Assembly (NCBI GenBank): GCA_964419225.1
Contig: CAYQPF010000003.1
Span: 37,523-101,522, forward strand
Source of the DNA: an uncultured Candidatus Cloacimonadota bacterium
GTDB lineage: Bacteria > Cloacimonadota > Cloacimonadia > Cloacimonadales > CAYQPF01
DNA: 64,000 bases
Direction: 5' to 3'
In this document: positions 2,520 through 34,500 of the stretch, piece after piece
How positions within the stretch are numbered: the stretch's first letter is position 1
Layout of the letters: every line of letters starts with the position of its first letter
Made by a program: the position numbers and the translations under genes
Notes under the pieces: model-generated
Told to the model about the DNA's origin: nothing
The model's input: only the letters and a program-made list of their open reading frames with translations
Databases searched by the model: none

Positions 2520-3560
2520 ATGAAAAGAGCATTAATTTCCGGGATAACTGGCCAGGATGGTTCATATTTAGCAGAGCAATTACTGGAGAAGGGTTATGAA
2601 GTACATGGGATCATAAGAAGATCATCATCTTTTAACACAAGCCGAATCGATCATCTTTATAAAGACATTCATGAAGAAAATGTGAAATTCTTTTTACATT
2701 ATGGAGATCTGACCGACAGCAGTAATTTGAATAGGTTGTTGGAAAAGATAAATCCGGACGAGATATATAATCTGGGTGCACAGTCACATGTTCAGGTATC
2801 TTTTGAAGTACCGGAATATACAGCAGAAGTAGATGGAGTTGGTGTTTTAAGATTTATTGATGCCATCAAAGAAACCAAAATAAATGCAAGATTTTATCAG
2901 GCTTCAACCTCAGAATTATATGGGCAGGTAATGGAAATACCTCAAACAGAAAACACACCTTTTTATCCTCGCAGTCCTTATGGAGTTGCCAAACTCTATG
3001 CATACTGGATCGTAAAGAATTATAGAGAAGCCTATAATTTGTTTGCAGTGAACGGGATCCTGTTTAATCATGAATCACCCCGCAGAGGGAAAACCTTTGT
3101 CACCAGAAAAATAACCCGGGCAGCAGCACTGATCAAAGAAGGTTTACAGGATAAACTTTATCTGGGTAATCTTGATTCAAAGAGAGACTGGGGATATGCT
3201 CCCGAATACACGGAAGCTATGTGGCTGATGCTGCAGCAGGACACACCGGATGATTATGTTATAGCTACAGGTGAAACCCATACAGTTAAGGAATTTTGTG
3301 AAGTCACCTTTAAAGAACTTGATATCAATCTTGACTGGCAGGGTGAAGGTGTGAATGAAAAAGGTATAGATGACAAAACCGGCAAAGTTGTTATAGAGAT
3401 CGACCCCAAGTATTTCCGACCGACAGAAGTAAGCTTACTGATCGGAGATCCTGCCAAAGCGAAGAGAGAGTTGGGCTGGGCTCCAAAAACGACTTTCCAT
3501 GATCTGGTGAAACTGATGATCCAGGCAGACTGGGAAAAAGTCAAAAGGAAAGGATATTAG
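2520..3560 (+). CDS. gmd: GDP-mannose 4,6-dehydratase
   Basis: [48 protein letters not shown] motifs. Confidence 0.98.
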
Positions 3561-3565
3561 GAAAA

Positions 3566-3599
3566 TTTTTGTCCACGAATTTCACAAATTCCACAAATT
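3566..3599. repeat. Left arm of 34-bp inverted repeat (9-mer periodic) flanking the GxxExxY gene
   Basis: tttttgtccacgaatttcacaaattccacaaatt matches the reverse complement of 4021-4054 at 30/34 positions. Confidence 0.9.
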
Positions 3600-3647
3600 T
3601 ATAATAAGAGACTAATTGGGAAAGTCAAAATAAACAAGGAGTGAACT

Positions 3648-4022
3648 GTGGTAGATTTGGTTTTGAAAGAAGAATCCTATAAGATTATTGGTGCCTGTAT
3701 GGAAGTACATAAAAATCTGGGGTGTGGATTTCTTGAGCCAGTTTATCAAGAGATTCTTGCAATGGAGTTTAAATTACAGGACATCCCTTTTGAGCAAGAA
3801 AAGAAAATTAATATTTACTACAAAGGTATGCAAATAAGCAAATACTATATTACTGATTTTATTTGTTATGACAAAGTAGTTGTTGAGTTAAAAGCTGCCA
3901 CAGATATAACAACAGAATTTGAGGCTCAAGTTCTGAATTATTTGAAAGCAACTGGATTAAATTTAGGATTGATCGTAAACTTTGGAAATATGAGTTTACA
4001 GTTTAAAAGAATAGTAAGGTAA
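3648..4022 (+). CDS. GxxExxY family protein (PD-(D/E)XK nuclease-like fold)
   Basis: GFLEPVY motif, DFICYDKVVVELKA, QVLNYLKATG...GLIVNFG. 124 aa, AGGAG RBS, GTG start. Confidence 0.93.
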   Translation: MVDLVLKEESYKIIGACMEVHKNLGCGFLEPVYQEILAMEFKLQDIPFEQEKKINIYYKGMQISKYYITDFICYDKVVVELKAATDITTEFEAQVLNYLKATGLNLGLIVNFGNMSLQFKRIVR

Positions 4023-4054
4023 TTAGTGTAATTAGTGAAATTCGTGGATAAAAA
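4021..4054. repeat. Right arm of 34-bp inverted repeat flanking the GxxExxY gene
   Basis: aattagtgtaattagtgaaattcgtggataaaaa. Overlaps the GxxExxY stop codon and abuts the fcl RBS. Confidence 0.9.
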
Positions 4055-4064
4055 AAGGAATTGT

Positions 4065-5162
4065 ATGGAACGACAGGCGAAGATTTATGTAGCAGGACAT
4101 AGCGGTCTGGTGGGATCAGCGATTGTGCGGAAATTGCAGGAAGAGGGTTATAACAACCTTGTTTTCACACCTCATACTGAGGTGGATCTGATCGATCAAA
4201 AGCAGGTATATGACTTTTTTGAGAGAGAAAGACCTGAATATGTATTCCTGGCAGCTGCAAAAGTAGGCGGAATACTAGCTAATTCTGAATATCCTGCTGA
4301 TTTTATATATCAGAATTTAATGATCGAAGCCAATATTATTCATTGTGCACATATATTTAATGTAAAGAAACTGCTCTTTTTAGGCAGTTCCTGTATTTAT
4401 CCCAAGAATTGTCCTCAGCCAATTAAAGAAGAATACTTACTGACCGGATTATTAGAAGAGACCAATGAAGCTTATGCTCTGGCCAAGATCAGCGGATTAA
4501 AAATGTGCGAATATTACCGTAAGCAATACGGTGATGACTTTATTTCAGCGATGCCCACCAATATGTATGGGTTGAATGATAATTATAATCTGGAAACATC
4601 TCATGTTCTACCGGCTTTGATCCGGAAAATGCACCTGGCAAAATGCCTGGAGATGAATGATTTTGAAGCAATACGTAAAGATTTGAAGAAATATCCATAT
4701 TCAAACAAAGTACTGTACTCAGACTCAATGACTGATCAGGATCTGTTAAAGCTATTAAACAATATTGGAATAGAAAGAATTAATAACACTTCTCTGAATT
4801 CGAGTAATTCTTGGACAGTTACCCTGACTCTTTGGGGAACCGGAGAGCCATATAGGGAATTTCTTTTCTCGGATGATCTGGCAGATGCTTTGTTGTTTAT
4901 GATGAATAATTACTCTGATTTTGTGCATTTAAACGTAGGAACAGGCGAAGATTTAAAGATAAAAGAGATCGCAATCTTAGTCAAAAATCACGTTGGTTTT
5001 CAGGGAATATTGAAATGGGATGCAGGTAAACCTAGTGGAACACCAAGGAAGAAGTTGGATGTGAGTAGGTTACATGCAATCGGATGGAGTGAGAAAGTCA
5101 GTTTGGAAGAGGGAATCAGACAAGTTTATACGAGTTATCAGGTGAATACTGAGTCGTTTTAA
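4065..5162 (+). CDS. fcl: GDP-L-fucose synthase (with internal insertion)
   Basis: GHSGLVGSA, AAAKVGGI, LGSSCIYP, YALAKISG, MPTNMYG, SHVLPALIRK, WGTGEPYREFL. ATG at 4065 follows an AAGGA RBS. Confidence 0.96.
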   Translation: MERQAKIYVAGHSGLVGSAIVRKLQEEGYNNLVFTPHTEVDLIDQKQVYDFFERERPEYVFLAAAKVGGILANSEYPADFIYQNLMIEANIIHCAHIFNVKKLLFLGSSCIYPKNCPQPIKEEYLLTGLLEETNEAYALAKISGLKMCEYYRKQYGDDFISAMPTNMYGLNDNYNLETSHVLPALIRKMHLAKCLEMNDFEAIRKDLKKYPYSNKVLYSDSMTDQDLLKLLNNIGIERINNTSLNSSNSWTVTLTLWGTGEPYREFLFSDDLADALLFMMNNYSDFVHLNVGTGEDLKIKEIAILVKNHVGFQGILKWDAGKPSGTPRKKLDVSRLHAIGWSEKVSLEEGIRQVYTSYQVNTESF

Positions 5163-31500: not shown

Positions 31501-34500
31501 TCATAAACGGATGCTGGATATTTGTAAGAATCCGCAAATAATTTCCAAACTGACTCAAAATATTCCTTTAGTTCGCGAATTATCCATAGATGTCAGAGAT
31601 TATCTGGATATTTACTCCGGATCAGAGAGTATTGTTGAGACCAAAAAGCTTACTGTTCAATTCTATGTTTTTAAGAATGTGCATTGGCCTATGTTCGAAA
31701 ATCTCTACGAATACCTGACAACACGAAGCGATGTTAAAGATATAATTGTTTGTATTCCGAATGTACAGTCTATAACAAATGATATCGATGATTATCTGAT
31801 TGATAAAATAAGTGCCCTCCCGGTTACTTTGACCCACAATCCCCGACAGTATAAAGTCGATATCACCTTCATAGCAGATACGATTGCCGGTAAAGTAAAA
31901 GATGCCGGATATATCGTAAATGTAGGGCATGGTACGATTTCAAAGGGGTATTATTTTACCGATAGTATTTGGACCGAACGGGAAAACTGGGCGGATTTAC
32001 TCTGCGTCCCGGGTGAATATGCAGGTCAGCAATTTAAAAATATCCTCAGAACCAGAGTTGTTCCTACAGGTATGCCCAAACTGGATAATGTCTTTTCCGG
32101 CAAGTATAATAAAGCCTATTTATGTGATCTTCTGAAACTTGATCCAACAAAGAAAATTGTTCTCTATGCACCTACTTTTAACATTGATCTGAGCAGTATT
32201 TTCAATTTCAAAGAGAGATTTATGGAATTTGATAGTCTTGATTACTATACTTTGATCAAATTGCATGGTTCGACTTTGCCATATTTAGGTGAAAATTATA
32301 AACAAATTGCCTCTTCCTCAAAAAATATTATTTATATAGAAGATGCTAATCTGGCCCCGTATATTGGAGGAGCAGATATCATGATCTCTGATGTCTCTTC
32401 GGCTTTTATGGAATTTATGGCCTGCAATAAACCGGTTATTCTCTATAACAATCCCAATGTTCAGAAATATCATGGTTATAATCCTGAGGATATCGAGTAT
32501 GCCTGGCGTGATTTGGGGACTCAGGTCGGAAGTTTTGATGAATGTAAATACGCTTTGCAGCAGTTACTTGTGACAGGTGATGACAATAAATCAACTCTAC
32601 GACAGAACTATGCACATCAGCTATTTTCCGATCTTGCAGGTAATGCCTCTGCCAATGTTTGGAATGCCGTTACAAGTCTTTTCAAAGACAATGCCCTAAA
32701 ATCAGAAATCCCGGTTTTGTCCATTCACCTTCATCTCGATAACAATGAGTTTCTTATTCGTGATCAATTATACCATATTCAATTTTACAGCGTAATGCCT
32801 ATTGATTTGATCCTCACAGTCAACAATAACAACTGTTCTAAAGAATTCCTGCAGTCTATAGAAAAATTCCACGAATTCTACAGACTTCAAATAGTACAAA
32901 GACCCAATCTGGATTATCGAAATGCCTGCAATTTGGCAATCGAGCAAGCTTTGGGTGAATATATTATAATTTTAAACGAAGGCAGCAGGATTTTCAAGAA
33001 CTTTGATTATATTACCTACAAATCCTTCTTACTGAATAATGATCTTTCCATCTTTACAGGATTAACGAACTTGGCTAATACTACAAATAACTATGAAAAA
33101 TATGCCAAACTACCCGAAGATGGCTCTTTTGCCCGCTTAAGTTTGCTCGTTTTCACTGAGTACAAATGTCAAAAATTAGTTCAGTATGATTCTTCAATAT
33201 TACCTGATTTTGTTGCTCTAAAGAGAAGTGTCTTAGTTAAGAATGACGATTATTATTCAACAATTGTAAAACATGTTTCATCTGACAAAATGAAAATCAA
33301 CCTTTCAATTGCTTGTCAGTCACTCACAAAAGAAGAGATTTCTTATCTGAAAACCCTGTGGAACTACCAGTATAAATTGAGTGAAATTGACCTGAAAAAC
33401 TATCTGCAGAATATGCTCAAAGCTATTGAATTATATCACTTTACAGATTTTATATCCTTGTTGATTCTGACTCTGAACAAGACTAATATGTTTAATGGAA
33501 AGGAACTGATCGATTTGGCATATCAAAGTCTCTTCCAACGTTACTATGATGTGCAGTACAAGCAAACATTAATCAAGCTTTTCCCTCCATTTAAACCAAA
33601 ACTCTCCAAGCAGTTAGCGATCATTGAAAAACTTGATTCCGGCGAAAAACAATCTTTAGTACAACCTGTGATCCAACCAAAGACCCAAACTGCCCAGCAA
33701 CCTTTTAAAACAGCGAAGAAACGTGTTATGCTGTATTACTTCAAAAATGTACATATCCCCATCTTTGCCAATCTGCTTGAGGAAGTCAGGAAACAGCCTT
33801 GGGATGTGGCCATAGGTGTTATGCCTTATGCTCCGGAAATGCGGGCAGGTTTTACACCCGAAGAACTGGAAATCATCAAATCTTACGGTCTGCCTTTGTA
33901 CTTCCAGCCACAGGAATTTCAGCCGGATGTCACTCTGATCGCTGATTCTGTTTATCCCTGGGTACAGAACTGCGGTAAGCTGGTACACATCGGGCATGGT
34001 GTGCTCTGTAAAGGGCAGTACTATACAAAAACTCAAACTGCATTGAGAGAGAACTCGGCAGATGTGGTCTGCGTGCCTGGTGACTACCATGCTTCCCTCA
34101 TGAGGCAAATTCTTACCAAACCTGTCATTGCGACTGGCATGTCCAAACTCGATCCTCTTTTCTCAGGACAGTTGAAAAGAGATGAAATTCTGCAGGATTT
34201 TGGTCTTCCTTTGGACTTTAAGTACATCCTCTTTGCCCCTACTTTCAATGATGAACTGTCCTCCATTCCTTTCACAATGAACAGGATCACAGATGTGATA
34301 CCTGATGATAAAACTATCCTCTTAATCAAACTCCACGGTTCAACCAAGCAGGAATATAAGGATATGTATGCCGGACTGCCGGCAGTCGATCCACGCGTAG
34401 TCTATATTGATCTCCTGGATATCACACCCTTCCTGGCTGTTGCAGACTTAATGATCTCAGATGTCTCTTCTGCAATGATGGAATTTGCTGCTCTGGCCAA

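Follow-up and report, generated by a model that had tools for sequence, protein, structure and literature searches.

A 64,000-nucleotide (nt) stretch of DNA from an uncultured Candidatus Cloacimonadota bacterium (assembly GCA_964419225.1, contig CAYQPF010000003.1, positions 37,523 to 101,522; hereafter the window) carries a cassette of 489 bases at positions 3566-4054 that fills the junction between gmd and fcl. The cassette consists of a gene for a small GxxExxY nuclease and, on either side of it, an array of short repeated words, here called the arms. We conclude that it probably belongs to a family of very small insertion cassettes spread across phyla, in which a promoter-less gene for a minimal Cas4/RecB-like nuclease and arrays of ~9-nt words are moved by that nuclease in a manner similar to REPIN/RAYT systems (hairpin-forming doublets of REP repeats (repetitive extragenic palindromes) and their associated tyrosine transposases). 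The arrays are usually inverted, so that the ends can form a hairpin. The copy in the window is intact and typical of its class, which is widespread and, as it appears, unpublished. A preliminary description, made from the letters of the window, had proposed a self-contained cassette of ~490 bp and a candidate mobile or intervening element; the flanks, the empty sites and the non-syntenic copies reported below support this proposal.

The layout of the locus proved to be as first described. The left arm begins 5 nt past the gmd stop codon, and the right arm overlaps the stop codon of the GxxExxY gene and is followed directly by the AAGGA of fcl. A repeat search of the window returned arms of 34 nt each, 421 nt apart and complementary at 30 of 34 positions (88%), with a 14-nt core, TCCACGAATTTCAC, that is identical in left and right arm. 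On direct reading, the four mismatches are G opposite A, which would be a G:U pair in RNA, A.A, C.U and A.A. Each arm is composed of three units of ~9 nt, those of the left arm being TCCACGAAT, TTCACAAAT and TCCACAAAT, with TCCAC as the outermost word and a T run in front of it. The core has three matches in the window at up to two mismatches compared with 0.50 expected by shuffling. GxxExxY is the only open reading frame (ORF) of the cassette, and neither a transposase nor an obvious target duplication is evident at the locus.

Matching flanks are more frequent at GxxExxY genes than at other genes. In the genome from which the window derives (5.59 Mb, 330 contigs, 37% G+C), we scored the 150 nt upstream against the 150 nt downstream of 4286 crude ORF calls. 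The inverted score of the window cassette was 20, a value reached by 11 of the 4286 ORFs, and scores of at least 16 in either orientation were found for 56 ORFs (1.3%). For four of the five GxxExxY genes in the genome, the repeats on one side match those on the other (scores 17-49). These four flanked paralogues carry four different word types, with direct rather than inverted flanks in two of the four. In the sole paralogue without flanking repeats (C14:41288-41665), the catalytic E and K are gone (IDIL for ELK), as is the glutamate of GFLE, so that this copy seems to be domesticated or dead. As the paralogue without repeats is the one without catalytic residues, enzyme activity appears to be tied to the arms.

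The association extends across phyla. In a sample of one genome per species we found 219 relatives, and we used the best 80 loci (50-64% identity), whose records are labelled Bacteroidota, Cloacimonadota, Chlorobiota, Lentisphaerota, Omnitrophota, Kiritimatiellota and Campylobacterota, together with one metagenome-assembled genome labelled Actinomycetota. These loci hold 87 GxxExxY copies, 82 of them with full flanks. Scores of at least 16 were obtained for 35 of the 82 homologue copies (28 inverted, 11 direct); among the other ORFs of these loci, 20 of 301 reached this value. Across phyla, the arms consist of one kind of word, with the degenerate core CAC-N-R-AT. In an unbiased count over the 82 copies, the commonest upstream 7-mers were ATTACAC, ACGAATT and CACGAAT, and the commonest downstream 7-mers were their reverse complements. 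At least two forward words stand upstream of 48 of the 82 copies and at least two reverse words downstream of 44, with both in 31. The expectation that homologues would generally be flanked by repeats, set out beforehand as a test, was thus borne out, the words being enriched with the same polarity. A second protein clade, typified by the paralogue on contig 10 (C10 type), was sampled in 232 genomes of the phylum, and 15 of its 28 loci have repeats in the flanks. Its flanks are more often direct (16 of 28 counted direct) and its word types vary, including CAGGAT, CACGGAT/CACAGAT, CACCGAA and CACAGAC.

The arm repeat is not unique to the gmd-fcl junction, which corrects the preliminary description, but belongs to a dispersed family of ~60 copies. 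At one mismatch or fewer, the arm core occurs 23 times genome-wide compared with no occurrence of a reversed control, and a profile built from the core copies gave 60 arm matches at E ≤ 0.01 on 28 contigs. All arm matches inspected are intergenic. Neighbouring arms lie within 600 nt of each other in 18 pairs, nine of them convergent as in the cassette, and eight of these nine convergent pairs hold no gene and enclose just 65-194 nt. The word types of the four flanked paralogues are also dispersed in gene-less form, at 31, 57, 13 and 13 sites compared with none for reversed controls. A genome in which each of four paralogues has a dispersed word family of its own is new here. The same arm sequence is present in other families of the same order. 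In one relative (G037), a single operon holds two copies of a gene-less hairpin of 115 bp (left arm, ~55 nt, right arm), and a GxxExxY gene with a further right arm directly follows the second hairpin copy.

Comparison of filled and empty junctions indicates what moves. In the 80 loci, the neighbours of GxxExxY genes are ordinary operon genes, on the same strand upstream in 73 of 75 cases and downstream in 64 of 72, at median gaps of 70 and 68 nt, respectively. The gmd-fcl junction is empty in four relatives from other families of the same order, with 2-27 nt between the aligned protein ends and, in one of the four, overlapping stop and start codons. Near-identical GxxExxY proteins are encoded in different junctions, namely between rfbB and rfbA (L114, L124, L128), between tviC and tviB (L094, L115) and before a UDP-glucose dehydrogenase gene (L100). 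DNA homology among these cassettes starts at the left-arm words just past the upstream stop codon and stops at the right-arm words, a few to ~25 nt ahead of the downstream ATG, and the number of words differs among them. In 81 Flavobacterium genomes, rfbB, cassette and rfbA are contiguous in four and partly so in a fifth, and rfbB and rfbA are adjacent without the cassette in at least seven, including the closest relative. The closest empty junction has a 12-nt spacer and flanks that are 85-88% identical. The empty sites among relatives, which the preliminary description had proposed to look for, are therefore present in both junctions, and the stable synteny that it had named as contrary evidence was not seen. 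Together, the empty junctions, the homology that ends at the arms and the filled and empty Flavobacterium sites show that arms and gene behave as one mobile unit. The unit lodges between co-directional genes of conserved operons and takes up the spacer between the upstream stop codon and the ribosome-binding site of the downstream gene.

Some junctions are used more than once. Besides the window, gmd-fcl is occupied in 10 of the 80 loci as judged by tblastn, with both genes as immediate neighbours in seven, and fcl lies directly downstream in three further loci; the occupied records are labelled Bacteroidota, Chlorobiota and Campylobacterota. The junction is thus a recurrent landing site across phyla, which is new here. 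Other junctions are cysD-cysN (14 loci, all Flavobacteriaceae), rfbB-rfbA (5-6 loci), legB-legC (four loci), wecC-wecB, tviC-tviB and sufD-sufS (two loci each) and leuS-purT (one locus), with the remainder at yet other sites. In a quick maximum-likelihood tree (85 rows, 123 columns), which is poorly resolved, the gmd-fcl copies do not form one clade: their 14 rows need 12 changes, of which well-supported branches force at least four. The arm words of these copies also differ (CACGAAT, CACAAAT, CACAGAT and GCGAAT), and their scattered tree positions together with the differing words indicate that gmd-fcl was occupied repeatedly. In three loci (L052, L061, L063), this junction contains a stack of a gene-bearing cassette and several hairpins without a gene, with nested arms spanning up to ~0.8 kb. 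Overall, the gmd-fcl junction looks like a hot spot.

The encoded protein is a small nuclease of the family that the preliminary description had named. The 124-amino-acid (aa) ORF matches TIGR04256 with 148.1 bits (cut-off 35; 1.3e-43; positions 2-116 of 116) and, as its sole Pfam match, PF13366 (PDDEXK_3) with 140.3 bits (cut-off 22; 4.4e-41; positions 2-117 of 117), so that its PD-(D/E)XK identity is far above the cut-offs of both models. The motif G27-F-L-E30-P-V-Y33 is present together with D70 and E80-L-K82, and the residues G27, E30, Y33, D70, E80, K82, Q94 and R121 do not vary among 79 aligned sequences. An AF2 (AlphaFold2) model with a pLDDT (predicted local distance difference test) of 96.3 and a pTM (predicted template-modelling score) of 0.88 has the secondary-structure order H-H-E-E-E-H-E-E, which corresponds to a predicted restriction-endonuclease-like alpha/beta fold. 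Foldseek searches of the PDB gave Cas4 SSO0001 as the best match (E 4.6e-4). Other top matches were nuclease domains of the lambda-exonuclease and RecB types and a restriction-endonuclease-like protein that is uncharacterised, and 3ijm was among the matches. Hjc and a tRNA-splicing endonuclease ranked much lower, and the PD-(D/E)XK-type homing endonuclease domain of I-Bth0305I (3r3p) was a weak match at rank 42 (E 0.042). All fold matches are weak to moderate, with template-modelling (TM) scores of 0.4-0.6. The modelled structure points to a minimal nuclease core that is nearer to DNA than to RNA enzymes. A PDB sequence search with the window protein gave no match (best E 0.11), and the PADLOC and PHROGs models left it unmatched. 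In-frame stops interrupt 5 of the 80 homologues, as expected of decaying selfish genes, and fragments and interrupted GxxExxY copies are frequent within single genomes. A 2012 survey of the PD-(D/E)XK superfamily gives the function of PF13366 as 'Unknown', and elsewhere in the literature that we searched GxxExxY/PF13366 occurs as a passing domain call beside a reverse transcriptase.

In the mechanism that we propose, the GxxExxY nuclease would recognise the word arrays in DNA and cut at or near them, and host repair or recombination would then copy or move the unit to new sites. Gene-less hairpins would be mobilised in trans by the same route. The relationship between repeat and enzyme would be REPIN/RAYT-like, with a different enzyme fold. 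Cassettes would be tolerated in operons because they bring no terminator and leave the downstream start signals free; processing of an arm stem in mRNA might add to this tolerance and would be unnecessary for the mechanism.

Several observations weigh against movement by the encoded nuclease. No cleavage, binding or transposition event was observed, and a 124-aa nuclease has no obvious strand-transfer activity. Target-site duplications were evident neither at the window locus nor in the comparisons of filled and empty junctions, in which the empty sites come from distant relatives whose flanks have no more than 88% identity. The numbers of genes and of arms are weakly correlated across 41 related genomes (Spearman 0.34); the gene is present in 7 of 9 genomes with at least ten arms compared with 17 of 32 others (Fisher p = 0.26, the relatives not being independent), a relationship too weak to rely on. 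Two genomes with at least ten arms, G010 and G018 (the latter 82% complete), have no GxxExxY match, and in G034, with 30 arms, all GxxExxY copies are broken. A strict pairing of one word type with each protein clade was considered and rejected, as CACGGAT/CACAGAT words occur with both clades. Moreover, in four gene-less rfbB-rfbA spacers of Flavobacterium (L136, L138, L140, L144), 37-160 nt are taken up by tandem arrays of different 7-8-nt words (GTCGAAA-, CAGTG- and CACTAAT-type). These may be scars, landing pads or independent arrays, and their presence in spacers without the gene indicates that such arrays also arise or persist alone. A last point concerns other genes with the same layout in the genome of the window. 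A 23S_rRNA_IVP gene (encoding a four-helix-bundle protein of 23S rRNA intervening sequences; C2:68633-69010) lies between direct heptamer arrays (GTCGTCA/GGCGTCA) with a flank score of 43, and its flanks also share a unit of ~20 nt. Two ORFs of ~200 aa with a weakly IVP-like N-terminal half (C126:11042-11644 and C97:15696-16292) lie between inverted arrays of 8-9-nt ATGGAC words, which form the largest word family of the genome (183 sites on 96 contigs). Word-array flanks around such non-nuclease 23S_rRNA_IVP genes suggest that the mobilising activity may lie elsewhere.

This leads to the alternative that the word arrays are handled in trans by a recombinase or transposase of the host or of another element, with GxxExxY as one of several small passengers that can replace one another, perhaps an addiction or defence nuclease. 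A gene for DUF559, a Vsr-like endonuclease (C257:529-921), lies inside a 45-nt GC-rich inverted repeat in the same genome, so that 23S_rRNA_IVP, IVP-like and DUF559 genes are all bracketed in a similar way, which is the strongest point in favour of this alternative. Gene-less arrays are also far more numerous than genes, and the two related genomes with arms and no GxxExxY match fit as well. However, no candidate enzyme lies beside the cassettes: no DDE or other transposase was found in the cassette or among its neighbours in the 80 loci, although no genome-wide search for a cognate transposase was made. The catalytic residues are invariant, with only the repeat-less paralogue having lost them, and the PADLOC and PHROGs models gave no match. 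We consider a passenger role for GxxExxY doubtful.

The 45-nt inverted repeat around the DUF559 gene recurs on another contig, with a 64-aa ORF (C134:7205-7399) inside it.

A second alternative places the function of the arms in RNA. Here, a stem of ~30 bp formed by the arms would loop out the cassette, and RNase III or the encoded nuclease would cut it, separating or insulating the gmd and fcl messages, in the way that an ORF-bearing intervening sequence (IVS) is removed from 23S rRNA. In an RNA fold of positions 3545-4075, the minimum-energy structure and the centroid structure alike have the arms paired (z = -3.49; none of 100 shuffles folds as well). No promoter-like or terminator-like site was found on the + strand between gmd and fcl, which makes co-transcription with a long stem plausible. 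Left and right arms also co-vary between loci: outside the core, arms of the same locus agree at 0.83 and arms of different loci at 0.33, the former value being inflated because segments were picked for best match. The anatomy, in addition, fits the 23S rRNA IVS of Coxiella (PMC4990558), which is 428-444 nt long, is closed by a 28-bp stem interrupted by one mismatch and a bulge, carries a small ORF and is cleaved by RNase III in vitro. According to the same source, ORF-bearing 23S IVSs of Coxiella and Leptospira resemble the cassette in size (428-444 compared with 489 nt), in terminal inverted repeats with a stem of ~28-30 bp and few mismatches, in a single ORF of ~120 aa, in their sporadic and horizontal spread and in being inserted where the host transcript must stay functional.

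Other features weigh against a function of the arms in RNA. Among 149 arm mismatches from 34 loci, 26 are G.U-compatible in the sense strand and 24 in the antisense strand (A.C-type), which gives no hint that the sense transcript is under selection. Many members have direct flanks, from which no stem can form (11 of 82 homologues, two of the four flanked paralogues and 16 of 28 loci of the second clade). A plain stem needs neither a word core conserved across phyla nor the unequal word numbers seen in the arms of close relatives, and an Rfam search of positions 3300-4300 matched no rRNA or other family. The absence of a G.U bias, the direct flanks, the conserved word core and the unequal word number together speak for a protein that recognises the words in DNA, with any RNA stem being a by-product that may aid tolerance. 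Unlike 23S IVSs, the cassette lies between two protein-coding genes and not in rRNA, its ORF is a PD-(D/E)XK nuclease instead of a four-helix-bundle S23p/23S_rRNA_IVP protein, its arms are arrays of conserved 9-nt words with dispersed gene-less copies, and its arm mismatches have no RNA-strand bias. An account of rRNA insertions in bacteria of the candidate phyla radiation (CPR) mentions IVP as the sole domain in the part consulted (PMC11270868). Thus, of the long mRNA stem and the compensatory changes that the preliminary description had put forward, pairing is predicted in the folds and same-locus arms do agree, but the mismatches lack a sense-strand G.U bias and direct flanks are common among the members. 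IVS-like RNA processing may occur but lacks support, and we regard it as an unlikely explanation of the cassette.

A third alternative, a free-standing homing endonuclease, would cut empty junctions and be copied into them by repair using the conserved flanking genes, with the arms being secondary. The position of the gene between highly conserved genes, the repeated filling of gmd-fcl by copies that are not one clade and have different word types, and the coexistence of filled and empty junctions within one genus would all suit such a gene. Homing is nevertheless quite unlikely: near-identical cassettes occupy junctions with unrelated flanking genes, and flanking homology cannot explain those moves; conserved arms and gene-less hairpins are also left unexplained. 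Finally, a lineage-specific intergenic repeat might have colonised both spacers independently and become inverted by chance, since the arm family is dispersed in the genome and in other families of the order and gene-less operon spacers can hold tandem-word arrays, but such a coincidence is very improbable and strongly disfavoured by the same words with the same polarity at homologues in other phyla, by matching flanks at four of five paralogues compared with 1.3% of ORFs and by homology between cassettes in different junctions that stops at the arms.

The cassette also stands apart from the known systems that it resembles; in anatomy it is nearest to the ORF-bearing 23S IVSs and in its genome-wide pattern to REPINs and RAYTs. 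In REPIN/RAYT systems (PMC3116915, PMC3337134), the enzyme gene is near to or flanked by its own type of repeat and gene-less doublets are extragenic. The cassette shares with them an enzyme gene flanked by its own repeats, more numerous gene-less inverted hairpin doublets and several repeat groups per genome, each with its own enzyme gene. It differs in having a Cas4-like PD-(D/E)XK nuclease instead of an HUH/Y1 (IS200/IS605-like) tyrosine transposase, tandem 9-nt words instead of GC-rich palindromes, and a gene-bearing cassette that is itself mobile, multi-copy, horizontally spread and sited in operon junctions. With free-standing homing endonuclease genes it has in common a small nuclease gene between conserved genes, presence or absence among relatives and reoccupation of the same junction; the terminal word arrays, the gene-less copies and the movement between non-homologous junctions set it apart. 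Small intergenic repeats such as the Correia and ERIC elements and the Geobacter Chunjie MITE (a miniature transposable element with inverted repeats) are further comparators. Like these, the cassette is small, ends in terminal inverted repeats, occupies co-transcribed intergenic positions and also exists as copies without a gene; unlike MITEs, it has its own nuclease ORF, with no transposase in the cassette or the neighbours of the 80 loci and no target duplication evident. As the cassette fails a defining feature of each known system, we file it under none. In the literature that we searched on GxxExxY/PF13366/TIGR04256, on related small-protein families and on MITE, nuclease and operon themes, we found no description of arm-bounded cassettes.

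A broader and more tentative proposal is that GxxExxY and its hairpins might form a self-mobilising repeat-and-enzyme system, analogous to REPIN/RAYT but driven by a minimal Cas4-like PD-(D/E)XK nuclease, that specialises in junctions of conserved operons across many phyla, with gene-less hairpins as non-autonomous satellites and the IVS-protein and DUF559 cassettes perhaps as sister lineages. GxxExxY, a large protein family to which no function is assigned, would gain one if the cassette is a mobile element. Bacteria would then have a class of mobile DNA that relies on a nuclease instead of a transposase and, at ~0.5 kb, one of their smallest autonomous mobile elements. Such a class would also account for many short tandem-word or hairpin repeats in operon spacers of Bacteroidota, Cloacimonadota and other phyla, and would link to, and may explain, the long-puzzling ORFs in rRNA intervening sequences. 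In practical terms, the cassettes split operons in annotation and mark polysaccharide loci exchanged between phyla, and the protein is a candidate for a sequence-specific mini-nuclease with a defined repeat target.

Table 1. Features of the gmd-cassette-fcl locus in the window.
Feature	Positions	Strand	Basis
gmd (GDP-mannose 4,6-dehydratase), upstream host gene	2520..3560, stop 3558-3560	+	TIGR01472 592.6 bits, PF16363
Left arm: three head-to-tail 9-nt words, core CACGAAT/CACAAAT	3566..3599	+	Inverted repeat search
Internal leader with Shine-Dalgarno AAGGAG (3636-3641), 6 nt ahead of GTG start	3600..3647	+	Direct reading
GxxExxY gene, 124 aa, minimal PD-(D/E)XK nuclease	3648..4022	+	TIGR04256, PF13366
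Right arm: three words, reverse complement of left arm, GTGGA and A run at end	4021..4054	+	Inverted repeat search
fcl ribosome-binding region, AAGGA (4055-4059), abuts right arm	4055..4064	+	Direct reading
fcl (GDP-L-fucose synthase), downstream host gene, ATG 4065	4065..5162	+	NF047922 5.5e-134

Further observations concern the edges of the cassette and its surroundings. The outermost word with its flank, TTATCCAC, TT(A/G)TCCAC (3566-3585, 4035-4054), resembles the E. coli DnaA-box consensus. Right arms of the window and of the G037 elements end in GTGGATAA, so that a stop codon lies at the element edge, and in some loci TCCAC is directly abutted by the TGA of the upstream gene. A third copy of the arm core, with two mismatches, lies at window positions 32868-32881. 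AGGAA occurs on both sides of the cassette and was considered as a target-site duplication; it was rejected because it is ribosome-binding sequence, and no duplication was consistent elsewhere. Among contigs from three runs of one study, the probable source contig runs across the cassette, with neither a joint nor a loose end at the arms, and the joints that do occur lie in conserved parts of gmd from other organisms; contigs alone are uninformative on excision or processing. A near-perfect palindrome of 28 nt, GTAGAGACAGGGCATGCCCTGTCTCTAC, stands on both sides of the unrelated ORFs C62:14216-14851, C264:655-1383 and C27:3580-3846 and looks like a separate REP-like family.

The fcl gene matches NF047922 with 446 bits, below the cut-off of 500, and does so in two stretches; read from its ATG, the match to the model begins at residue 4. 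The protein has 365 aa compared with 308 model positions, and the stretches cover residues 4-198 and then ~253-363, implying an insertion of ~55 aa. The fcl genes beside homologous cassettes in other taxa are likewise split, with lengths of 359-389 aa and a first stretch that ends near model position 195.

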